In this document: positions 4,479 to 52,201 of the stretch, piece after piece
Layout of the letters: each line of letters opens with the position of its first letter
How positions within the stretch are numbered: the first letter of the stretch is position 1
NCBI GenBank assembly: GCA_036444215.1
Contig: JAZGAA010000006.1
Location: 1-59,942 of the forward strand
Direction: 5' to 3'
Length of the DNA: 59,942 nt
Source: Minisyncoccota bacterium
GTDB taxonomy: Bacteria > Patescibacteriota > Minisyncoccia > UBA6257 > UBA9933
Program-made: the position numbers and the translations under genes
Notes under the pieces: model-generated
The model's database searches: none
What the model was told of the DNA's origin: nothing
Seen by the model: only the letters and a program-made list of their open reading frames with translations

Positions 4479-5714
4479 ATGGCAAGTAAAAATCAAATAT
4501 TAAGAATTTTATTATACGGGTTTTTAATTTTATTTATAATTTGTTGCACAGCGTTCGCCGCTACTCCCGAAAAACTCAAGGATTCCATTGAACAAAAAAA
4601 TTTAGAACTCCAGGAAATTAGCAACCAGATTAAAGAAACCCAAAAAGAGCTTGAACAAACTCAAGAAGAGGGCCAGACCCTTAAAAAAGAAATTGGAAGA
4701 ATTAGCAGTCAGGTTAATCAGCTTAATTTAAGTATTCGTTCAAGCGGGGTTATGATTGGTAAATTGGAATTAGAGGTTGAATCGCTCCAATACGACATTG
4801 TTGATACCGAAGAAAGAATTATTATTAACAGAGAAGCCATTGCCGAGGTTTTACGGCAACTTCAACAAAAAGAAGGAGAAACTACCCTAATGGTTTTTCT
4901 TAGAAATAAAAGTTTGGCAGACGGTATTTTTGAAATTCAGGGTCTGGCTGATCTTAATAATGAACTATCAGTTGAAATTGCCAATCTAAGAGATTCAAAA
5001 AATAAATTAGCAGGCGCCTTAGATGAAACAGATTACAAAAAACGGTCAACAGAAATAGAAAGCTTCAATCTTAAAAGCAAAAAAGGAATAGTTGAGGATG
5101 TTAAAGAAGAGAAACAAGTAATTTTAAGCCAAACAAAAAATCAGGAGTATTTATATCAAAAACAATTGGAAGAATTGGAAGAATTACAAAAGGAAATTAG
5201 TGATGATATTGCCGAGCTGGAGCATGAATTGCGTGCGTCCTTTGACCCCACTCTTTTACCCTTAAAACGTCCTGGTGTGCTTGGTTATCCAGTGTATGAT
5301 GTTTATATTACGCAGGAATACGGAGAAACAAGTTTTGCCCGGCGCGCCTATAAAACTAAATTCCATAATGGCGTTGATTTCAGAGCGCCTATTGGAACCC
5401 CAATAGTGGCAGTTGACGACGGAAAAGTGATTGCCGTAGGTAATAATGGCCGGGTTCAATACGGTAAATATATTATTATTGAGCATAATAATAATTTAGC
5501 CACTCTTTACGCGCATCTATCAAGACAAAGCGTTAATAAGGGCTATGAAGTTAAGAAAGGTGAGATTATTGGTTATGCTGGAAATACTGGTTATTCTTTT
5601 GGGTCTCATCTTCACTTTACTGTTTATTGGGCGCCGAGCATAACTTTTAAGTCGTTTTCAGGGGCTGGCTCTGTTCCTATAGGCGTTACTATCAATCCAA
5701 TGGATTATTTGTAA
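4479..5714 (+). CDS. M23 family metallopeptidase with N-terminal signal anchor and coiled coil (EnvC-like)
   Basis: HNGVDFRAPIGTPI and GNTGYSFGSHLHF M23 motifs; long Q/E/L-rich coiled coil. Confidence 0.85.
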   Translation: MASKNQILRILLYGFLILFIICCTAFAATPEKLKDSIEQKNLELQEISNQIKETQKELEQTQEEGQTLKKEIGRISSQVNQLNLSIRSSGVMIGKLELEVESLQYDIVDTEERIIINREAIAEVLRQLQQKEGETTLMVFLRNKSLADGIFEIQGLADLNNELSVEIANLRDSKNKLAGALDETDYKKRSTEIESFNLKSKKGIVEDVKEEKQVILSQTKNQEYLYQKQLEELEELQKEISDDIAELEHELRASFDPTLLPLKRPGVLGYPVYDVYITQEYGETSFARRAYKTKFHNGVDFRAPIGTPIVAVDDGKVIAVGNNGRVQYGKYIIIEHNNNLATLYAHLSRQSVNKGYEVKKGEIIGYAGNTGYSFGSHLHFTVYWAPSITFKSFSGAGSVPIGVTINPMDYL

Positions 5715-5715
5715 T

Positions 5716-6969
5716 ATGGTTAATTTTTTGGATTTAAGTAAAAAAATAATTCCCCGACCAATTTTTAATTTTTTTCAACCGGTTTACCATTGGTTGATGG
5801 CGTTGGCCGGCGCTATTATTTATCGATTCCCATCGTCTAAAATTTTTGTTTTAGGAACTACCGGAACCAAAGGAAAATCAACAACTTTAGAGTTAATAAA
5901 CACAATTCTGGAAGCTGATAAAAAGCGAACCGCTTTACTTTCTTCTATTCGGATAAAAATCGGTGAGAAAAGCAAAAAAAATTATTCCGGCAACACAATG
6001 CCAGGTAGGTTTTTTATTCAGAGGTTTTTACGAAAAGCCGTTAATACCAACTGCCAATATGCTTTGATTGAAGTAACTTCACAAGGGATTCTCCAATATC
6101 GTCATCGGTTTATTAATTGGCAAGCGGCAATTTTCACTAATTTAGCGCCGGAACATATTGAAGCCCACGGCTCTTTTGAAAAATATCGTAAAGCTAAAAC
6201 AGATTTTTTTACATATATTAAAAACAAACTGTTTTTCATTAACAAAGATGACGCTAATGCTAAGTATTTTACCGAGGCTGCCCAAGACGGTAAAATTGTT
6301 TTATATTCAAAAAACTCCCTAAACTCTAAACCCTATACCCTAAACCCTAATTTAATTGGCGATTTTAATAAAGAAAATATCGCTGCTGCAATTGCTTTTA
6401 TCAAATCACAAAATATTAGTGAGACAATTATCAAAAAAGCCATTGAAAATTTTCAAGGCGTTCCCGGTAGAATGGAATTTATTCCCGCCTTCGTTAAAAC
6501 TTCGGCGGGCAAGCAGCAGCCGTTTACCGTAGTAATAGATTATGCTCACACTCCCGATAGCCTTAAAAATGTTTATGAGACTATTAGAAACTCAAAACTA
6601 ATATGCGTTCTTGGTTCAGCCGGCGGAGGACGAGATAAATGGAAACGGCCGGAAATGGGCAAAATTGCCGCGGAATATTGCGATAAAATCATTCTGACCA
6701 ATGAAGATCCTTATGACGAGAAGCCATTGGAAATTTTGAGTCAGATTGAAGTTGGTATTTGTATTAATCCACGCACATTAGCGCGAAGGCCCGCTTTTAT
6801 TTACAAAATATTAAATAGAAAAGAAGCAATTAAAAAAGCGATTTCTTTAGCAAAACCAAACGATACGGTAATTATCACCGGCAAAGGATGTGAGTCATTT
6901 ATTCATATTGCTGGCGGAAAAAAAATACCGTGGAACGAAAGAAAAATAGTTGAAGAAATAATAAAATGA
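5716..6969 (+). CDS. Mur ligase family protein, MurE-like (short, lacks the N-terminal domain)
   Basis: GTTGTKGKSTT P-loop and DYAHTPDSL motif typical of MurE. Carries two in-frame repeat insertions (6313-6351, 6484-6520). Confidence 0.6.
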   Translation: MVNFLDLSKKIIPRPIFNFFQPVYHWLMALAGAIIYRFPSSKIFVLGTTGTKGKSTTLELINTILEADKKRTALLSSIRIKIGEKSKKNYSGNTMPGRFFIQRFLRKAVNTNCQYALIEVTSQGILQYRHRFINWQAAIFTNLAPEHIEAHGSFEKYRKAKTDFFTYIKNKLFFINKDDANAKYFTEAAQDGKIVLYSKNSLNSKPYTLNPNLIGDFNKENIAAAIAFIKSQNISETIIKKAIENFQGVPGRMEFIPAFVKTSAGKQQPFTVVIDYAHTPDSLKNVYETIRNSKLICVLGSAGGGRDKWKRPEMGKIAAEYCDKIILTNEDPYDEKPLEILSQIEVGICINPRTLARRPAFIYKILNRKEAIKKAISLAKPNDTVIITGKGCESFIHIAGGKKIPWNERKIVEEIIK

Positions 6970-25411: not shown

Positions 25412-25430
25412 TTATTGTTATTTAAGTTAG

Positions 25431-25775
25431 TGGAGATGGGGGTATTGAAACCCCGTCCAAAGATTGTCCAAAAAAATTTCTACAAGCTTAGCCTAATTAG
25501 AATTAAGAATTAAGAAGTATGAATTAAGCAAAACCCTCTTAATCCTTTGCCGAAAGTGTTCTCACTAAAATTGGCAATTTAAGCGAGTAAGCTCAAAATA
25601 TTACACCCAGTTCTTCAACTTGAGCAATTAAAGGTGGATGCTGCTTTAAGCAAAAGCTAAAGCAGGTGCTAATCTGTTTTTTGCAGATATAGTTTAACTC
25701 GGTGATTTGCGAGGTAACGAGTCATCCTCGGCTTGCAATTTTTTTAAAAGATCTCCGTCGAAGCCTTACATCCCC
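25431..25775 (-). ncRNA. ssrA: tmRNA (SsrA), one-piece
   Basis: 5' GGGGATGTAAGGCTTCGACGG pairs with 3' ...GGACGGGGTTTCAATACCCCCATCTCCA, including a G3:U pair. Tag ORF GCAAAAAACAGATTAGCACCTGCTTTAGCTTTTGCTTAA encodes AKNRLAPALAFA* (25646-25684). Lies directly downstream of smpB. Confidence 0.88.
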
Positions 25776-25854: not shown

Positions 25855-26292
25855 CTACTTAATTATTTTTCTAATCTCTCGTTCTACTTCTCGTTTTTTT
25901 ATCAATTCTCGCTTATCTCTCTTTTTTCGGCTCTTTGCCAATCCAATTTCTATCTTAATTCTGCGATTCTTAGTATAAACCTTTAGAGGCACCAAAGTCA
26001 ATCCTTTTTCCTGGGTCCTGCCGATTAGATTTTTAATCTCAGATGTTTGAAGCAGCAGCCGGCGGGTCCTTTTGGAATCATAATCTTCGGGCATATTCTT
26101 TGGTTGATAAGGAGGTATGTCTGCATTAAGAAGCCAGGCCTGATTATCCCGGATAACAGCATAAGACCCGGCAAGATTTATTCTGCCGGTTTTTATGGAC
26201 TTAACTTCAAATCCTTTTAATTCAATCCCTGCCTCAAGCGTTTCTAAAATTTGATAGTCAAAATATGCGCGTTTATTGGTAGTAATAGCCAT
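25855..26292 (-). CDS. smpB: SsrA-binding protein SmpB
   Basis: NKRAYFDYQILETLEAGIELKGFEVKS and basic C-terminal tail. Confidence 0.95.
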   Translation of the reverse strand: MAITTNKRAYFDYQILETLEAGIELKGFEVKSIKTGRINLAGSYAVIRDNQAWLLNADIPPYQPKNMPEDYDSKRTRRLLLQTSEIKNLIGRTQEKGLTLVPLKVYTKNRRIKIEIGLAKSRKKRDKRELIKKREVEREIRKIIK

Positions 26293-26305
26293 TGTTTTTA
26301 GTATA

Positions 26306-27973
26306 ATGAATACAATGGTTAAAGTAAAAATTATTAATTATCTTAAAGAAGTTGTTAAAGAACCTGTGTCAATTGAAGTTTTCGTGCCGGATAATGAAAA
26401 ATTCGGGCATTATTCCACAAATGTCGCTTTGAAATTGGCAAAATTACGCAAGCAGAATTCGATGACTGTTGCTGAAGAGATTAAAAGCGTACTATCACGC
26501 GTAGTAGTAAAAGATTTTTTTAAAAAAATTGAGATTGCTCCTCCGGGATTTATAAATTTCTGGCTGTCAGAAAAAACTCTACAAGATAAAATAAAAGAAA
26601 TTTTGAAGAAAGAAAAGAAATACGGCCAACAACTAAAAGCTAAAAGCTCAAAGCTAAAAGCTATTAGCATTGAATTTATTTCCGCTAATCCTACTGGACC
26701 TTTGACTATTGGCAATGGCAGGGGAGGTTTTTTGGGTGATGCATTGGCAAATATTTTGAAATTTCAAGGAAATAAAGTAGTAAAGGAATATTATATTAAT
26801 GACGCTAAAGCAAGCACTCAGATTAGAGAATTAGGGAAAACGGCGGTTGGAATCGGTAAAAGCTACAAAACAAAAGATTTAGAATTAAAAATCAAAAAAT
26901 TAGGGCCAAAGAAAGCCAAAAATTACAGCGACGCTGGATATTTGCTTGCGAAAATAATCCAAGAAGATAACAAGAAGTTTATTGAAAATAAATTAAAAAT
27001 AAAATTTGACAAATGGTTCAGCGAAGAAAACCTGTATAAAAGTGGAGCTGTTGAAAAGTTGCTGGGAGAATTAAAAAAGAAAAATTTAATTTACAAAAAA
27101 GACGACGCTATATGGTTTAAATCAAAACAATTTGGCGATAACGAAGACAGGGTTTTGGTACGGCAACCCCGCGTAGCGGGGCAAGCAGGAGAACCGACAT
27201 ATTTTTTGCCGGATCTTGCTTATCATTTAAATAAATTCAAAATTCGTAAATTTAACAAAGTTATAGATATTTGGGGAGCTGACCACCATGGTTACAGTCC
27301 TCGGCTTAAAGCCGGTCTTAAAGCTTTTGGTATAGCTGATGAAAAACTCAAAATTATCATTAGCCAATTAGTCCGTTTAATTAAAAAAGGCAAAGAAACG
27401 AAAATGTCAAAAAGAAAAGGAGAGTATGTGAGCTTGGAGGAATTAATAGATGAGGTTGGTTTGGACGCGGCGCGATTTTTCTTTTTAATGTATTCGCCGA
27501 ATACTCATATGGATTTTGATTTGGATTTGGCAAAAGAGAAATCATTAGAGAACCCGGTTTATTATGTGCAATACGCTGCCGTAAGATGCGATAGCATACT
27601 CAAAAAACCCAAATTCCAAAGCCCAAATTCCAAACAAATTCCAAAGCCCAAATTCCAAAACCTAAAATTATTAAACACAAAAGAGGATTTAAATTTAATA
27701 CGGATGTTGGTGAGGTTTCCGGAAATTATTGAAGAAGCAGCGCAAAATTACAGCCCGCAAATTTTAGTGCGATATTCTTTGGATTTAGCGCGGCAATTCC
27801 ATAATTTTTACGAAAAAGAACACATCATCGCGGACCTGCGCGGACTTAACGCGGACCAATACAGACAAAGTATGGATTTTATGTTTGCGCGTTTGGCTTT
27901 AATTCAGGCAACATTAGTAATTTTTAAAAATACATTCAACCTTTTGGGCATCACATTGCCGAAGAAAATGTAG
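26306..27973 (+). CDS. argS: arginyl-tRNA synthetase
   Basis: SANPTGPLTIGNGRG (HIGH region), DHHGY, MSKRKG (KMSK). ATG at 26306 or 26315 preferred over the 26276 start that overlaps smpB. Carries four in-frame repeat insertions. Confidence 0.9.
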   Translation: MNTMVKVKIINYLKEVVKEPVSIEVFVPDNEKFGHYSTNVALKLAKLRKQNSMTVAEEIKSVLSRVVVKDFFKKIEIAPPGFINFWLSEKTLQDKIKEILKKEKKYGQQLKAKSSKLKAISIEFISANPTGPLTIGNGRGGFLGDALANILKFQGNKVVKEYYINDAKASTQIRELGKTAVGIGKSYKTKDLELKIKKLGPKKAKNYSDAGYLLAKIIQEDNKKFIENKLKIKFDKWFSEENLYKSGAVEKLLGELKKKNLIYKKDDAIWFKSKQFGDNEDRVLVRQPRVAGQAGEPTYFLPDLAYHLNKFKIRKFNKVIDIWGADHHGYSPRLKAGLKAFGIADEKLKIIISQLVRLIKKGKETKMSKRKGEYVSLEELIDEVGLDAARFFFLMYSPNTHMDFDLDLAKEKSLENPVYYVQYAAVRCDSILKKPKFQSPNSKQIPKPKFQNLKLLNTKEDLNLIRMLVRFPEIIEEAAQNYSPQILVRYSLDLARQFHNFYEKEHIIADLRGLNADQYRQSMDFMFARLALIQATLVIFKNTFNLLGITLPKKM

Positions 27974-36485: not shown

Positions 36486-36559
36486 ATTAAAAGGAAATGG
36501 GTCAAAAGATTGACCCATTTTTTATAAAATTCTTGAAATTATGTTATTATAAAAAGGAA

Positions 36560-37798
36560 ATGAAAATTACAGACGTTAATATTAAAATCATTTCAGATTC
36601 TCGCGGCAAAGAAACATTGGAAGCGGAATTAAAAACCGCGGATATTTCTGTATCCGCAAGCGTGCCAGCCGGCAAAAGCACTGGAACGCATGAGGCGTTT
36701 GTTTTAGAGCCAAAAAACGCTCTAAAAAAATTTGAAGAAATAAAAAGCAAAGTTTTAGGACAGGATTTTAACAAACAGGAAGATTTTGATAATTTTTTAA
36801 TTTCTTTAGATGGCACTTCTAATAAACAAAATCTTGGAGGTAATTTGATTTTAGCTTTGTCTTTGTCTTGGGCAAGATTGAAAGCAAAAAATGAAGGGAA
36901 AGAATTATTTCAATATATAAATAAGGAACTAGGAACTAGTAATCAGGAAATAGGAACGCCGAGGCCGGTTTTTAACGTTATTAACGGTGGAGTGCACGCT
37001 ACCCATCCAAAGTCAAAGTTAGAATTTCAGGAATTCCAAGTAATACCAAGCGTAGAAGATTTTGGCATTGCTTTAAGTGTTGGCAGGGAATTTTACCGCA
37101 AACTTCAAACATTGTTGGAAAATAAATTTGGCAAGGAAAATATTTCTTTGGGTGATGAAGCCGGCTTTTCAGCTCCATTCAAAAATAATGAAGAAGCAAT
37201 TGAAGTTTTGGCTGAATTAATAGATAAGCATAGTTATCCTTTAAGGATTGGATTGGATATAGCAGCTTCACAATTTTACAAATCAGGCGGATTTCTTAGA
37301 GAATCAGGGTATGTTGTTGACGGCAAGAAACACTCAGTAGAAGAACTAAAAGATTTATATTTAAAATTGATTGAAACGTATAATATTTTATCAATTGAAG
37401 ACCCTTTTTATGAGGAATCATTTGATTCATTCGCTTCGCTCACCGCGGACTCACGCGGACTGGACGCGGATAGACGCGGACTATTAGTGATAACGGACGA
37501 TTTAACAACCACTAATCCAGAACGTTTAAAAACAGCAATTAATAAAAAATCCGGCAACGCAATTTTAATAAAATTAAATCAGATAGGAACATTAACAGAA
37601 ACTCTAAAAGTTGTTAAACTGGCTTATGAGAATAACTGGCAGGCAATAGTTTCGCACAGGAGCGGCGAAACAATGGATGATTTTATTGCTGATTTGGCTG
37701 TTGGTATTAACGCATGGGGCATTAAAGCCGGCGCGCCGGCAAAACCGGAAAGATTAATAAAATACGAACGAGTTTTGGAGATAGTTGATAAAAAATAA
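36560..37798 (+). CDS. eno: enolase (divergent)
   Basis: IISDSRGKETLE, SVPAGKSTGTHEA, NVINGG, GDEAGF, SIEDPF, DDLTTTNP, IKLNQIGTLTE, SHRSGET. Start at the ATG preceded by aaaaagga. Confidence 0.9.
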   Translation: MKITDVNIKIISDSRGKETLEAELKTADISVSASVPAGKSTGTHEAFVLEPKNALKKFEEIKSKVLGQDFNKQEDFDNFLISLDGTSNKQNLGGNLILALSLSWARLKAKNEGKELFQYINKELGTSNQEIGTPRPVFNVINGGVHATHPKSKLEFQEFQVIPSVEDFGIALSVGREFYRKLQTLLENKFGKENISLGDEAGFSAPFKNNEEAIEVLAELIDKHSYPLRIGLDIAASQFYKSGGFLRESGYVVDGKKHSVEELKDLYLKLIETYNILSIEDPFYEESFDSFASLTADSRGLDADRRGLLVITDDLTTTNPERLKTAINKKSGNAILIKLNQIGTLTETLKVVKLAYENNWQAIVSHRSGETMDDFIADLAVGINAWGIKAGAPAKPERLIKYERVLEIVDKK

Positions 37799-43081: not shown

Positions 43082-43917
43082 TAATAATACAGATATGAAA
43101 ATGTTGATGAAAATATCCGGCGGCTGAAAAACGGCGAATTTTCTATGTTCGCAATTTCAGTCCGCTAAACAGCGGATTTTTTGTTTTCTGAATGGATAGT
43201 TTTTTGACAAATACGTGAATCGCTCGAATTTCAAACAAATGATAACGAATTTCAAACGAATATTTTTATTCGTTTTACATTCATTTTAATTCGTTAATTA
43301 TTTGGGCGAAAGACGCGTTATAAAACAATTATTCGAGTCCTCGAATCCTAAATATGGATTTAAGAGACAAAATTTTTTTAAGGGCGTATGGTGGATGCCT
43401 TGACATCAAATGACGATGAAGGACGTGGCGTGGCTGCGATAAGCTTCGGGGAGGTGCTTAGCAACTTTTGATCCGGAGATTTCCGAATGGGGAAACCTAA
43501 TTACGTAAACCGTAATTGGCTCTATTTTTAAAAATAGAGCAGTATATCCGCTGAAGTGAAACATCTCAGTAAGCGGAAGAAAAGAGAAAAATTTTTATTC
43601 CCTAAGTAGCGGCGAGTGAAAAGGGAGGAGCCCAAACCGAGCACATAATTTTTTATATGCTCGGGGTTGTAAGAATTTCACGCTACTTTATTAATCACAG
43701 AGTTCCACCTTTAAGGGATTCTGTGATTTATGAAGAAAGGAAAGGTTATAAAATTATTTGTTAGCTGAACCTGCTGGAAAGCAGGACCAGAGGAGGTGAT
43801 AGTCCTGTAGGCGAAAACGAATAATCCTTTTAGTGGATTATCTTGAGTACCTCGATGACAGAATACTTCGAGGGAATCATCCGGCACTATCCGGAAAGGC
43901 TAAATACATTTGATGAT

Positions 43918-43956
<39 letters not shown>

Positions 43957-44126
43957 GGCCGGCGAGGCCGTTGAAATAGAACCTGAAACCATATGCTTAC
44001 AAGGAGACGGAGCCCGCAAGGGTGACGTCGTGCCTATTGAAGAATGAGCCAACGAGTTTATGTATATCGCTAGTTTAAATCCTACGGGATGAAAGCGTAG
44101 GGAAACCGAGTGTTAAAAGCGCGTAT

Positions 44127-44295
44127 GCCAGTGCTTCGCACTGGAAATTCCAAATTCCAAATCTCAAATCACAAATAAATCTCAAATCCCAATTTTCAAA
44201 ATTCCAAACACGTTTTGGTCATTTGAATTTTGGTTATTGATGCTTGTTTGTTATTTGGTGCTTGTTATTTGGTGCTTCCAATGCGCAGTATTGGT
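44127..44295 (+). repeat. 169-nt hairpin insertion at the 23S helix-25 position (IVS-like), copy A
   Basis: Interrupts ...GAGTGTTAAAAGCGCGTAT | TGGCGGTATGTGTAAGACCCGAA. Terminal mini-hairpins gccagtgcttcgcactgg and ccaatgcgcagtattgg. A/C-rich arm faces a G/T-rich arm. Confidence 0.85.
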
Positions 44296-44810
44296 TGGCG
44301 GTATGTGTAAGACCCGAAGCCAAGCGAGCTTGCCCTGGCCAGGATGAACTTCGACGAAAGTCTAAGGGAGGTCCGCACCAGTAGATCGTTCAAAATCTTT
44401 GGATGAGCTGGGGTAAGAAGTGAAAAGCTAATCGAGCTTGGTAATAGCTGGTTCTCTCCGAAATAGTTTTAGGACTAGCGTTTAGAAAAAACCTTTATGG
44501 GGTAGAGCTACTGGTTGAGAAGTAAAGGGGGAAACCTCGGCTTTTCAGTCAAACTCCGAATACATAAAGGATTGTCTAAGCAGTTAGACCATGGGGGCTA
44601 AGCTCCATTGGTCAAAAGGGAAACAGCCCTGATCGTCGTCTAAGGTCCCTAAATATTTGCTAAGTGTTAAAAAGGTAGTAATTCGCCATAGACAGATAGG
44701 AGGTTGGCTTAGAGGTAGCCATCCTTTAAAAAGTGTGTAACAACTTACTATTCGATGGCGGGTTGCGCCGAAAATTTAGCGGGGCTAAGCAAATTACCGA
44801 AGACACGAAT

Positions 44811-44979
44811 GCCAGTGCTTCGCACTGGAAATTCCAAATTCCAAATCTCAAATCACAAATAAATCTCAAATCCCAATTTTCAAAATTCCAAACACGTTTT
44901 GGTCATTTGAATTTTGGTCATTGGTGCTTATTTGTTATTTGGTGCTTGTGATTTGGTGCTTCCAATGCGCAGCATTGGT
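44811..44979 (+). repeat. 169-nt hairpin insertion at the 23S helix-45 position (IVS-like), copy B
   Basis: Interrupts ...GGGGCTAAGCAAATTACCGAAGACACGAAT | GTGGTAGGAGAGC. Differs from copy A at about five positions, all in the 3' arm. Confidence 0.85.
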
Positions 44980-45731
44980 GTGGTAGGAGAGCATTTCAAT
45001 CGCGCTGAAGTGCGACCCGCGAGGGCGCATGGAGCGTTTGGAAGAGAAAATGTTGGTATGAGTAACCGCAAAGCCGACGAGAAGTCGGCTCCCCGAAAAT
45101 CCAAGGTTTCCTCCGCAACGGAAATCGACGGAGGGTTAGGCGATCCTAAGGCAATGGCGAAAGCCGGAGCCGATGGACAGCTGGTTAATATTCCAGCCCG
45201 CCGGGCATAGTTCGATGGAGTGACGGAGAAAAAAAGATTAAGCATCTTAATGGTTTGGTGTTATTGGTTATTAGAATTGCTGTTTAGGTAAATCCGGACA
45301 GCTGCTTTAAATGGCGGGATTCGCAAACCGATAAAACTTCAGTTCGCTGAAGAATTTAATTGAAGAGTCTTCCGAGAAAAACTTCTAAGATTTCCTATGT
45401 TCGGCTTCGTACCGGAAACCGACACAGGTGGATGAGGCGAGGAGCCTCAGGGGAACGAGTGAGTCCTCGTTAAGGAACTCGGCAAAAAAGCGGGTGTAAC
45501 TTCGGGATAAACCCTGCCGCCTAAGTTTTTGTTTTACAAAAATTTTGGCGGCCGCAGCGAAAGTATCCCTGGCGACTGTTTACCAAAAACACAGCTCCCT
45601 GCGAACTCGTAAGAGGATGTATAGGGGGTGACGCCTGACCGATGCGAGAAGGTTAACGGCGGCGGTTTTTTTAAAAGCAATTTTGAGAAAGCTGACTGCC
45701 CGAAGCCCTCGTCAATGTCAGCGATAACTAT

Positions 45732-45997
45732 AAGTAACGATTGTAGTTGTAAAATTTGGCTATATGCTGGAAAGCCCTTAGGGCTGATAAAACCAAAACA
45801 GTAATCTGAAAAGATAAGCTGACGGTTTAAAAATTTATCAGATTGGGTAATCAGCAGGAAAGACTCCTAAGGTAAATCTAAGGAGAATCCTCAGAGACTA
45901 TACGCCAAATCTTATTAAAAATAAGAATGATATAGTCCGAACTCTATGGCGACATAGAGAGTTGTCTAAATTAAACTAGACAGAATAACACATAATG
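45732..45997 (+). mobile_element. group I intron in 23S at E. coli-equivalent position L1917 (H69 loop), ORF-less
   Basis: Exon junction ...GATAACTAT | AATCGTTCTAAGGTAGCG restores the H69 context. 5' exon ends in T and the intron ends in G. Core motifs TATATGCTGGAAA, AATCAGCAGGAAA, CCTCAGAGACTATACG, GATATAGTCCGAAC. Confidence 0.8.
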
Positions 45998-46336
45998 AAT
46001 CGTTCTAAGGTAGCGCATTTCCTTTCCAGGTAAGTTCTGGAGCGCACGAAAGGCGTAACGACTGGGGAACTGTCTCAACGAGGAGCTCGGTGAAAATGCA
46101 ATTCCCGTGAAGATGCGGGATACCTGCAGCAAGACGAAAAGACCCCGGGAGCTTTACTGTAGCTTGATATTGGTTTTAGGGTTTTAATGCGTAGCGTAGT
46201 GGGGAGGCTTTGAAACTTTACTTTCGGGTAGAGTGGAGCCGCCAATGAAACACCCATCTTTAAAATTTTAAAATCTAATCTGAACGGCAAAAACGTTCGG
46301 AGACAGTGTCTGGCGGGCAGTTTATATGGGGCGTAT

Positions 46337-46662
46337 TCCTTAATGTAATTTGCACCTCCGTGCAATTACGAGGGGGACCTATTGCCGTGAGGCGATACGG
46401 AAAAACTATCTATATGCTGGAACATCCGCGAGTATCTTGGAGTACTTGTTCTAAATATTATTAAAGGACAGTAAAAATCTTTCAAGTGATGCGGACAATC
46501 AGCAGGAAACCAAATTCAATATATTGAGAGTGGGATCCTCAGAGACTACACGATAGCAACTTTTTATAAAAAAGAGTTGATAATATAGTCCGAACTGCGT
46601 AGCGATGCGCAGAGGATTGCATTATTAGTAATGTAATCTACCTAATAAAAATATAAATTAGG
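46337..46662 (+). mobile_element. group I intron in 23S just 3' of the H80 P-loop hairpin, ORF-less; paralog of the L1917 intron
   Basis: Interrupts ATATGGGGCGTAT | ...GCCTAAAAAGTAACGGAGGAG. Same core motifs as the L1917 intron (TATATGCTGGAAC, AATCAGCAGGAAA, CCTCAGAGACTACACG, AATATAGTCCGAAC). Boundaries +/-10 nt. Confidence 0.7.
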
Positions 46663-46861
46663 TTAACATTTTGCCTAAAAAGTAACGGAGGAGTTTATTA
46701 AGGTTGGCTTAGCCCGGATGGAAATCGGGCTGGACGCGTAAAGGCAAAAGCCAGCTTAACGGCAAGGCTGACAAGCCGCGCCGGTGCGAAAGCAGAACTT
46801 AGTGACCCGACGGTTCTTTATAGAAAGGCCGGAGACAACGGATAAAAGCTACCCCGGGGAT

Positions 46862-47141
46862 GAAGCCTGAAATAAGGCTTTGTTGTCCTCCTCGCAGTAA
46901 TGCGAGGTAATAAATGCGACTTATAACGGTGGAATCAAAACTGGTCTTTCCCAGAAATGGGTTTTAGAGTTTTGACAATACCGTGGGAAGTCGCTCGTCC
47001 AAAAAAATGGGCGAGTTGACCCTGTAACGACTTAATCCAAGAGGATTGGATGGTAGTTTTTAAACTATCATAATACGTCGCGCCCACTGAGATTTTATTT
47101 TAGTGGGAAAAGATATAGTCTAATACATTAAAAATGTATCG
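46862..47141 (+). mobile_element. group I intron in 23S at L2449, ORF-less, different subtype
   Basis: Exons ...CCCCGGGGAT | AACAGGCTGG are exactly contiguous in E. coli (GGGGAU|AACAGG). Intron ends in G. P7-like AGATATAGTC. Confidence 0.8.
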
Positions 47142-47253
47142 AACAGGCTGGTGAAGTCCGAGAGTTCACATCGACGACTTCGCTCGGCACCTCGATGTCG
47201 GCTCACCACATCCCGGGGGTGGAGAAGCTCCCAAGGGTTTGGCTGTTCGCCAA

Positions 47254-47297
<44 letters not shown>

Positions 47298-47626
47298 TGG
47301 TCTCTATCTGCTGTAGGCGTTGACGCTTGAGGGAAGTTGACCCTTGTACGAGAGGATCAGGTTGAACGAACCTCTGGTCTACCGGCTTTGCCACCAGGTG
47401 AAGTGCCGGGTAGCTATGTTCGGAAGGGATAAGCACTGAAAGCATCTAAGTACGAAGCCCCTCCCAAGATTAAGCGTCTTAGATTCCTGGAAGACTACCA
47501 GGTAAATAGGCTTTAGGTGTAAGCGCAGTAATGCGTTTAGCCGAGAAGTACTAATAAATCGTATTTTTTTATCTCTAAATTCATTTTAGGGTTCGAGGAG
47601 TCGAATAATTGTGTTAAATTTATTTT

Positions 47627-51001: not shown

Positions 51002-51652
51002 ATGGAATTCTTAATCATTCTTTTAGGTTTATTGCCCGGTTTTGCCTGGCTAATTTTCTTTCTTAAAGAAGACGTTCATCCGGAGCCGAAAAGAATGATT
51101 GCCAAGGTTTTTTTTGTTGGCGCTATTTTCACTTTTATCGCTCTGGGTTTTGAGGCAATTTTTCAGGATTTTGCCAGAAATTTAAACATCAAAGATACCA
51201 GTATTTTTTCTTTTTTTGGCTTATCTGTGATTGAAGAAGTTTTTAAATTTCTGGCTGCTTATTTAGTGGTAAGAAAGAGCCGCTTTTTTGACGAGCCAAT
51301 TGACGCAATGATTTATATGATTGTGGCGGCTTTGGGTTTTTCTACTGTAGAAAATCTTGCTGTAGTGTTTAATATTGTTTCCGATGCCGGCGGAGTTATT
51401 AATATAATGATTCTTCGTTTTGTCGGCGCTACATTACTTCACGCTTTGGTTTCCGGAGTTGTCGGATTCTATTGGGCTCGCAAAAAAATACTAAAAGGGC
51501 TGGCCATTGCCGCTATCTTGCATACTGTTTTTAATTATCTTATACTAATATTTAGCGAGGCAGTGATTTACCCGAGCGTATTCTTGATAATTATCGCGTT
51601 TTTCGTATTTTATGATTTCGAACGCCTAAAGGCGCGGACTAATACGGACTAA
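51002..51652 (+). CDS. PrsW family intramembrane glutamic/metallo-protease
   Basis: Multi-TM; IEEVFKFLA (EExxK) and HALVSG motifs. The last residues (ARTNTD) are encoded by a CGCGGAC-word repeat. Confidence 0.7.
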   Translation: MEFLIILLGLLPGFAWLIFFLKEDVHPEPKRMIAKVFFVGAIFTFIALGFEAIFQDFARNLNIKDTSIFSFFGLSVIEEVFKFLAAYLVVRKSRFFDEPIDAMIYMIVAALGFSTVENLAVVFNIVSDAGGVINIMILRFVGATLLHALVSGVVGFYWARKKILKGLAIAAILHTVFNYLILIFSEAVIYPSVFLIIIAFFVFYDFERLKARTNTD

Positions 51653-51697
51653 ACACAGACTCATGCGGAATTTCCGTATAAGTCAGTGTTAATTAGT

Positions 51698-52201
51698 ATG
51701 GATAACGACAACAAAAACTTTTTCGAAAAATTAGCCGGTTTTAATTCCGGCGATGACGAGTTTGAGCCTAAATTAGCAAAGGCTGACGTTTCAAGCTCTA
51801 AAAATAATAAAAATATGAAAAAGAATTCAAAAGAAGAAGAATTAGACACTATTGAAGGGTTTGAGGATTTTGAAGGGCAGCTGACAATTGATATTTATCA
51901 GACGCCGAATAATATAATAGTGGAATCAACAATTGCCGGCGTTAATCCGGATGATTTGGATATTTCTATTACTCCTGATTCTGTAACAATTAGAGGCGAG
52001 CGTCAAAAAGAAGAAAAAATTAAAAAAGAGGACTATCTCTATCAAGAGTGTTTTTGGGGAAGGTTTTCCCGTTCAGTTATTTTACCCCAGGAAGTTGACC
52101 CTGACAGAGCTCAGGCATCGGTTAAAAATGGCGTCTTAAAAATTATCCTTCCTAAACTTGACCGCCAAAAATCTAAGAAGTTAAGAGTAAAATTTGATTA
52201 A
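51698..52201 (+). CDS. Hsp20/alpha-crystallin family small heat-shock protein
   Basis: VDIYQT...AGVNPDDLDISI...ITIRGER...GRFSRSVILP...A..KNGVLKIILPK. ATG at 51698 preferred over GTG at 51686. Confidence 0.85.
   Translation: MDNDNKNFFEKLAGFNSGDDEFEPKLAKADVSSSKNNKNMKKNSKEEELDTIEGFEDFEGQLTIDIYQTPNNIIVESTIAGVNPDDLDISITPDSVTIRGERQKEEKIKKEDYLYQECFWGRFSRSVILPQEVDPDRAQASVKNGVLKIILPKLDRQKSKKLRVKFD

Follow-up and report, generated by a model that had tools for sequence, protein, structure and literature searches.

Phased-word repeat arms in housekeeping genes of a Minisyncoccota bacterium as probable nuclease-less derivatives of a GxxExxY nuclease element

The DNA analysed here, hereafter called the window, comprises positions 1-59,942 of contig JAZGAA010000006.1 from a Minisyncoccota bacterium, and its home genome was labelled G000. 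The word CGCGGAC recurs at three sites of this window, in the genes for enolase and arginyl-tRNA synthetase (ArgRS) and at the 3' end of prsW, and all three sites belong to one DNA-level repeat family. The unit of this family, here called the arm, consists of four 8-nucleotide (nt) words of the form A-Y-R-C-R-G-A-Y with CGCGGAC as their core, each followed by a linker of 2 or 3 nt. The words were spaced 10/11/10 nt in nearly all copies, and the arm measures 39 nt, equal to 13 codons. We propose that these arrays are probably derivatives, without the nuclease, of an element that carries a nuclease gene between two arms, represented in the window by two solo arms and one hairpin. The relatives of this ultrasmall bacterium are Candidatus Wolfebacteria, and orthologues were compared in the congeners G001 and G002 as well as in other family members. 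The features at the three sites are the following.

26276..27973, plus strand: arginyl-tRNA synthetase gene, host of an arm, with orthologues in G002 and G017
27828..27868, plus strand: solo arm in ArgRS, words spaced 10/11/10 nt (nhmmer E = 3.6e-9), not present in ArgRS of G002 and G017
36497..37798, plus strand: enolase gene, host of an arm (PDB enolases E = 8.9e-84; modelled with AlphaFold 2)
37442..37481, plus strand: solo arm in enolase, four words spaced 10/11/10 nt (nhmmer with the arm model, E = 1.3e-9)
51002..51652, plus strand: prsW, for a PrsW-family intramembrane protease (PF13367 E = 1.5e-26), its C-terminus rewritten by the element
51632..51670, plus strand: left arm of the prsW-end hairpin (GCGCGGACTA ATACGGACTAA ACACAGACTC ATGCGGAA; nhmmer E = 6.3e-9), not present in G002, G001, G004 and G017
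51671..51697, minus strand: loop (TTT) and degenerate, shortened right hairpin arm, a weak minus-strand arm match
51698..52201, plus strand: hsp20 gene (PF00011 E = 4.1e-19), its start set by alignment with G002 (MEDSTKNFFEKL versus MDNDNKNFFEKL)

An arm profile in the form of a hidden Markov model was trained on 16 arms from G000 and used with an nhmmer cut-off of E < 0.01. The profile matched all three window sites, and one DNA family is therefore read as an internal insert, as a C-terminal replacement with a stop codon and as spacer, as the earlier note on this DNA had proposed. The note had also described the words at each site, and its readings held. The four tandem words of enolase comprise CGCGGAC at 37444, 37454 and 37475 and CGCGGAT at 37465. 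They encode the peptide TADSRGLDADRRGL (residues 316-329), which ends four residues ahead of the DDLTTTNP motif. The three copies of ArgRS lie at 27829, 27839 and 27850, are accompanied by a degenerate fourth word ATACAGAC, and give the peptide IADLRGLNADQYRQ.

At the end of prsW, the words supply the last codons and the stop (GCG CGG ACT AAT ACG GAC TAA, read as ...KARTNTD*, with the TAA at 51650-51652) before continuing into the spacer. The hairpin noted there earlier, gcggaatttccgt, is just the tip of a two-arm hairpin of ~65 nt. Its loop and right arm occupy the prsW-hsp20 spacer as far as the hsp20 start codon; the element abuts this ATG at 51698 and is in frame with hsp20. The prsW hairpin stands in the standard reading frame of the hairpins, and the TAT (Tyr) of all the others is replaced by TAA. 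A single TAA-to-TAT change in this hairpin (51632-51700) would fuse PrsW to Hsp20. The RNA of the hairpin was predicted to fold with -27.2 kcal/mol (z = -4.7). RNA folding gave no significant fold for the coding solo arms of enolase and ArgRS on their own, and Rfam returned no family at any of the three window sites.

The possibility that CGCGGAC is a generic frequent k-mer, raised beforehand as a way to refute the family, failed. The window contains 8 exact copies against 2.05 expected, a number reached in 0 of 100 shuffles, and the genome contains 45 against ~12 expected from base composition. A degenerate three-word pattern gave 26 matches in G000, compared with 0 for the reversed control.

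The census of word runs that had been suggested covered the whole G000 assembly (487 kb in 57 contigs, GC 0.37, 84% complete). It yielded 27 arms (E < 0.01) at ~20 loci, which form 7 two-arm hairpins of 75-85 nt and 13 solo arms. The hairpins have a polarity, with linkers TA/TAT/YA in one arm and TY/TGG/TT in the other, and the words of both arms alternate between AC.. and AT... The solo arms consist nearly throughout of ACGCGGAC words with the linkers TY/TGG/TT and so make up a subfamily distinct from the hairpin arms. Older copies decay towards AT. Since the helical repeat of B-DNA is 10.5 nt, equal to the mean word spacing, the words of an arm would lie on one face of the helix.

Two further properties of the arms were considered and rejected. 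A design that is free of stops in six frames was not seen, as the mean number of open frames was 3.27 for real arms, 3.03 for random genomic 39-mers and 3.65 for shuffled arms. A strand-specific asymmetry of G.U pairs, which might have hinted at a functional RNA, was not significant (58 versus 42 wobbles). The antisense strand folded better in 13/19 hairpins.

About 18 of the 20 G000 loci lie in frame within long open frames of housekeeping genes that were verified with Pfam. The hosts besides prsW are listed below.

Hosts, first group: penicillin-binding protein (PBP) transpeptidase, RsmH and a DUF4015 hydrolase (Pfam)
Gat hosts: GatA, GatB and GatC (Pfam)
tRNA synthetase hosts: LeuRS, ThrRS and PheT (Pfam), and also ArgRS
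Other hosts: TpiA, ribosomal protein L23, DnaE and SecA (Pfam), and also enolase
Hosts named by resemblance: CobA-like, ComF-like and RluD-like proteins (Pfam)

Because ~85% of G000 is open frame of at least 120 codons, the elements neither avoid nor seek genes. The same arm DNA can encode ADLRGLDAD, TRTNADSTRT or, from its antisense strand, SPRKSASSPRESA, and in other genomes of the candidate phyla radiation (CPR) arms are read in all sense and antisense frames. The arm family is therefore defined at the DNA level and not at the peptide level. No Pfam family covers the inserted peptides, and the arm inserts created false similarity between unrelated proteins in the orthologue search. One host stands apart as a side observation: contig C26 of G000 (5327-6451) encodes a low-complexity protein of 375 residues without a Pfam match, which contains three arm fragments. 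Its G002 orthologue (L220) holds four arms, so that this protein is unusually rich in element-derived sequence.

Orthologue comparison divided the copies into three groups by the genomes that share them, as follows.

Copies in G000 only: ArgRS, DnaE, GatB, CobA-like, ComF-like and the prsW end, where relatives show clean gaps of 10-14 residues
Copies common to G000 and G002 only: RsmH, LeuRS and GatA
Copy common to all three congeners: PheT

In the PrsW of four relatives (G002, G001, G004 and G017) the protein ends in ...KLKKIR* and is followed by a 9-nt spacer before hsp20, and in G000 the ~65-nt hairpin replaces the last codons. The alternative that the arm residues are ancestral fails on the ArgRS of G002 and G017, on these four PrsW proteins and on most enolases, all of which are without the residues. 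At the site of the C5 arm of G000, the DUF4015 gene of G002 (L165) carries a different 21-nt tandem repeat (AGTAATCAGGAACTA...), with the peptide TNSNQELGTSNQEL.

The enolase copy was less clear-cut. PDB enolases and most Wolfebacteria enolases are without the arm residues, but in a few other Wolfebacteria enolases (P0010, P0012) this arm is found at the identical position. The copy is therefore either old or recurrent. Elsewhere in Wolfebacteria, this loop contains a full hairpin peptide (P0090), arms of sister word subfamilies (ACGCAGAT, ACGCTGAT), unrelated hairpins (G002) or nothing. In the G002 enolase (L002), the unrelated hairpin is a perfect one, GGAGTACTTCCA-TGCG-TGGAAGTACCT, read as GVLPCVEVPE, and G009 and G017 have antisense arms of ACGCTGAT words in the loop. 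The enolase loop is repeatedly struck by different element families.

The earlier note had suggested modelling enolase to see whether the insert is compatible with the active-site lid. An AlphaFold run with a 55-homologue alignment gave a predicted local distance difference test score (pLDDT) of 87.9 and a predicted template modelling score (pTM) of 0.88; a single-sequence run (pLDDT 36) was set aside in its favour. Residues 316-329 begin as the end of helix 309-319, pass through a loop at 322-326 with pLDDT <50 and are followed by strand 330-332. Compared with the enolase of M. jannaschii, the insert adds 8 residues, which fall between a helix and the strand whose end is the DDL motif. In TIM-barrel topology, alpha-to-beta loops lie on the face opposite the catalytic one. 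As modelled, the insert thus sits in an alpha-to-beta loop on the non-catalytic face and not at the active-site lid. The enolase open reading frame (ORF) also has an N-terminal extension of 21 residues (MGQKIDPFFIKFLKLCYYKKE, 36497-36559) with pLDDT ~50-60 and no counterpart in homologues, and the true start is probably M22.

A link between the arms and a nuclease was found in relatives. In G061, arms bracket an ORF of ~116 residues that lies in frame within LepA and RecG. This ORF is a full-length GxxExxY protein (TIGR04256 E = 1.6e-34; PF13366 PDDEXK_3 ~1e-33). Insertions at the same two sites were found in G002, in RecG after DEQHRFG.SQRA.L and before PHFLSMSATPIPRT, and in LepA between MAPVRMVY and YILNLIDTPGH. 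In G000, RecG and LepA have empty sites, with linkers of 10 and 6 residues. The GxxExxY copies keep D62 and K74 invariant together with the acidic position of (D/E)-x-K, which is E, or D in one of nine copies. As a side observation, the downstream arm of the G061 LepA copy (L221/L227) has grown to four exact 21-nt units (SPQLSAS x4), an indication that slippage can amplify the 10+11-nt double unit.

The association extends well beyond these two genomes. The 39 closest nuclease homologues belong to many CPR classes, and 38 of them have open frame running on at either side. The host is LepA in 18 cases and RecG in 15, at the same sites, and other hosts include ValRS and LeuRS. In 30/39, the arm profile, trained on G000 alone, matched an arm of the right orientation on the right side. 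A PF13366 ORF between inverted arm arrays was thus found in G002, in G061 and in these 30 homologues, and not in G000, where arms occur alone.

The hairpins themselves resemble this element with its gene removed. When the ends of the G002 RecG element were joined, they aligned colinearly with the G000 hairpins at 65-76% identity, compared with a shuffle maximum of 59%; for the prsW hairpin, the identity was 65% and the shuffle maximum 57%. The peptide junction of the hairpins, ...TE|GLYKSV..., equals the full-length element minus the nuclease. All 18 coding hairpins of G000, G002 and G001 have one orientation and one frame, the same as those of the arms of the full-length element, as follows if hairpins are the full element minus the nuclease.

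More distant genes bear on the relation between nuclease and word. Stand-alone GxxExxY genes lie between inverted, phased ACACGGAT/ACACGGAA/CACAGAT words in Planctomycetia, Bacteroidales, Halomonas, Omnitrophota, Chitinophaga and Lachnospiraceae. G002 and G061 also possess stand-alone GxxExxY paralogues (L223, L228, L230, L231 and L232), which are 31-42% identical to the LepA/RecG clade and flanked by inverted arrays of different words (TTGCGAG, TCTCTAAT, GCGAAT). These sequence comparisons suggest that nuclease and word co-vary. PDDEXK_3/GxxExxY is a widespread family whose function is listed as 'Unknown' (PMC3424549). No paper was found in the literature on this word, on in-frame repeats of CPR or on GxxExxY as the enzyme of a mobile element.

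Our explanation for these observations is as follows. The full-length form consists of a four-word arm, a GxxExxY/PDDEXK_3 nuclease ORF of ~116 codons and an inverted arm. In Patescibacteria it sits in frame within other genes, chiefly those for LepA and RecG with a single site in either, and the host protein apparently contains the nuclease as an internal domain. The junction peptides had no noticeable splicing motifs, but no formal intein or intron search was made on them. The hairpins are colinear with the full-length form without the nuclease ORF, and the solo arms are single 39-nt arms of 13 codons. With ~85% of the genome in open frame, most insertions would land in genes. The copies that persist would be those that are in frame, contain no stop codon and give peptides that are hydrophilic and flexible and lie in surface loops, in domain linkers or at protein ends. 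The inserts would be translated as surface loops. The words may be binding or cleavage sites of the nuclease, which would drive spread either through homing-like break-and-copy or through cut-and-paste. Internal deletion in place, mobilisation in trans or the two together could have given rise to hairpins and solo arms.

We consider it likely that the arrays are nuclease-less derivatives of such an element, and several observations weigh against this. No GxxExxY gene was detectable in the 84%-complete assembly of G000. A nuclease domain of 116 residues with a PD-(D/E)XK fold has no obvious way to transpose on its own. Neither a target-site duplication nor a target motif was visible at 6 filled-versus-empty comparisons, in which the flanks were too diverged to be sure. 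The solo arms differ in their words from the hairpin arms. The enolase arm occurs in some more distant Wolfebacteria and not in the congener G002, a pattern that needs loss or replacement, or recurrent insertion.

A larger claim may be formulated from the same data, namely that GxxExxY nuclease and phased-word arms make up a distinct class of mobile element, which homes into conserved sites of essential genes such as lepA and recG, is expressed as an unspliced internal domain of the host protein, uses the 10.5-bp-phased words as its recognition sites and seeds CPR proteomes with translated relics (hairpins and solo arms), among them those of enolase, ArgRS and PrsW in the window. In this complete form we put the claim forward tentatively and hold it to be rather improbable.

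The best-surviving alternative is that hairpins and solo arms were never mobile, each being a decayed remnant, left in place, of a full-length insertion, as in the cycle of homing endonucleases. The match of the hairpins to the full element minus its ORF, down to the junction, agrees with this, as do the 18 coding hairpins that keep its orientation and frame. The occurrence of full-length copies in ValRS, LeuRS and other hosts also agrees with it. The distribution of copies fits less well. G000 and G002 together have hairpins at ~25 sites, compared with full-length copies at two sites of G002 and none in G000, and the solo arms are distinct, little decayed and present in three frames and both orientations. 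The shared frame of the hairpins may also result from filtering at the protein level, since 3/6 frames of the hairpin consensus are open and one of these is hydrophilic, the latter judged partly by eye from the consensus. We regard in-place decay as the sole source of the copies as possible, with the balance tilted against it.

The three-word pattern was present in 15/201 genomes of the order, scattered across families, with zero control matches. The degenerate pattern counted 2 arms in G001, 26 in G000, 71 in G002, 22 in G131 and 33 in G061, with 0-1 for reversed controls. Exact triple words were found in Harrison-, Lipton-, Vogel-, Jorgensen-, Wolfe-, Terry-, Moran- and Berkelbacteria and in Saccharibacteria. 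Matches in high-GC genomes (many contigs of Actinomycetota and Gemmatimonadota) were rejected as compositional, and a match in a viral contig (L149) was rejected as an unrelated high-GC tandem repeat. In Harrisonbacteria, hairpins lie in spacers directly upstream of start codons. Two of them, at 415 and 4289 of MHJJ01000002.1 (L041), have in common a further 20 nt, identical in both (GTGAGCGATAGCGAACA + ATG), which extends to the downstream start codon, and the repeat may there deliver a 5' untranslated or start region.

The arrays might instead be protein-bound DNA sites useful to the host and kept by selection, comparable to the NTS repeats that the Ssn nuclease reads in Neisseria, with GxxExxY as the host factor that reads them. 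The 10/11-nt alternation that puts the words on one helix face would suit such sites, the same type of word goes with this nuclease clade across phyla, and a small nuclease with cognate dispersed repeats that modulate transformation has been described (PMC11893778). Against this reading, the copies share no common location, lie in loops of essential proteins and take several frames and orientations. Moreover, copy number varies from 2 to 71 among congeners, G000 has 26 arms without a detectable nuclease, and old copies decay towards AT. Selection for host sites is thus a reading to which we assign a low probability.

Far less credible is the idea that selection at the protein level acts on the repeats as functional peptide modules with heptad-like motifs (DADLRGL / TRTNTDY). 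The 21-nt double unit does equal 7 codons, and many proteins contain these peptides, which are hydrophilic. However, at least four combinations of frame and orientation of the same DNA give unrelated peptides, and copies occur in non-coding spacers, both in the window and in Harrisonbacteria. The enolase insert was modelled as a low-confidence loop, and no Pfam family lies on the inserts. Selection for peptides would predict conserved amino acids with synonymous drift of the words, and the opposite was observed.

An excess of k-mers by chance, slippage in local replication or an artefact of assembly deserves next to no credence: high-GC genomes and one viral contig do give exact CGCGGAC triplets in unrelated contexts, but shuffles and reversed-pattern controls gave ~0, the same four-word arm stands at 20 unlinked loci, and diverged orthologous copies exist in independently assembled genomes.

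Several known systems share part of this picture. Rickettsia palindromic elements (RPE; Ogata et al. 2000) are selfish palindromes inserted in frame, as summarised in PMC10969869. Like them, the elements studied here are palindromic repeats in frame in many unrelated housekeeping genes of a reduced genome, with no transposase in the same genome, and are apparently tolerated because of surface-compatible positions. However, RPE are ~100-150 bp long, restricted to Rickettsia and without a known enzyme, whereas the arms are 39 nt long with four phased words, occur solo or as hairpins of ~80 nt, span many CPR classes and are linked to a GxxExxY ORF in relatives. By length, host phylum and word architecture, the arms are classed as an analogue and not as a member of RPE-1 to RPE-10.

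Ssn is a GIY-YIG nuclease whose substrate is single-stranded DNA, which it cuts where a short hairpin motif lies (Chenal et al. 2025, PMC11893778). The Ssn/NTS/SRM system likewise has a small nuclease gene framed by a short sequence that is dispersed in many genome copies. The enzyme considered here differs in its PD-(D/E)XK fold (PF13366), its phased word arrays in place of the NTS motif, and the position of gene and repeats in frame in essential genes. Repetitive extragenic palindromic (REP) and REPIN repeats go with RAYT transposases (PMC3116915). They resemble the arms in having singlet and inverted-doublet forms, and many gene-less copies beside a rare repeat-flanked enzyme gene. RAYT, however, is a Y1/HUH transposase, a family (Y1_Tnp, PF01797) not found in the 84%-complete assembly of G000, and the enzyme beside the arms is PF13366. 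REPs are also extragenic and each a small palindrome, whereas a single arm is not palindromic and mostly lies within a gene. The in-frame nuclease at fixed sites of essential genes, its fold and the phased words thus make the difference from RPE, REP/RAYT and Ssn/NTS.

Inteins and homing endonuclease genes show a likeness in the recurrence of a nuclease-bearing insertion in distant lineages at matching conserved sites of LepA and RecG, in empty sites of close relatives and in nuclease-less minis. In contrast to inteins, the insert seems to stay in the host protein, and homing elements are without repeat-array arms. MITEs (miniature transposable elements with inverted repeats) and transposons with multi-site or foldback ends (Mu, Tn7, Drosophila FB) share inverted ends made of repeated short sites, as well as short enzyme-less derivatives. 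Differences are that no target-site duplication was seen at the 6 comparisons with their diverged flanks, that DDE, rve, TnpB and RVT_1 were absent from the 84%-complete assembly of G000, and that the enzyme is a nuclease domain of 116 residues.

Apart from the arms, the window contains a 23S rRNA gene (43366-47575), interrupted at 45659-45959 and at 46348-46612 by two group I introns that score 81 and 77 bits in Rfam, and a tmRNA at 25428-25775.

The arms have a practical consequence, since they produce false similarity and rewrite gene ends, as in prsW, and arm inserts should be masked in annotation and phylogenomics. The data provide a candidate function for PDDEXK_3/GxxExxY, namely that of a nuclease associated with one particular phased DNA word. 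Should the enzyme indeed read its arms, a new sequence-specific nuclease would be at hand whose target is easy to predict, and the element would exemplify a selfish gene that relies, unspliced, on an essential host protein for its expression. Some of the unusual loop insertions that single lineages of CPR/Patescibacteria have in housekeeping proteins would be translated relics of one DNA element family and not adaptive novelties.

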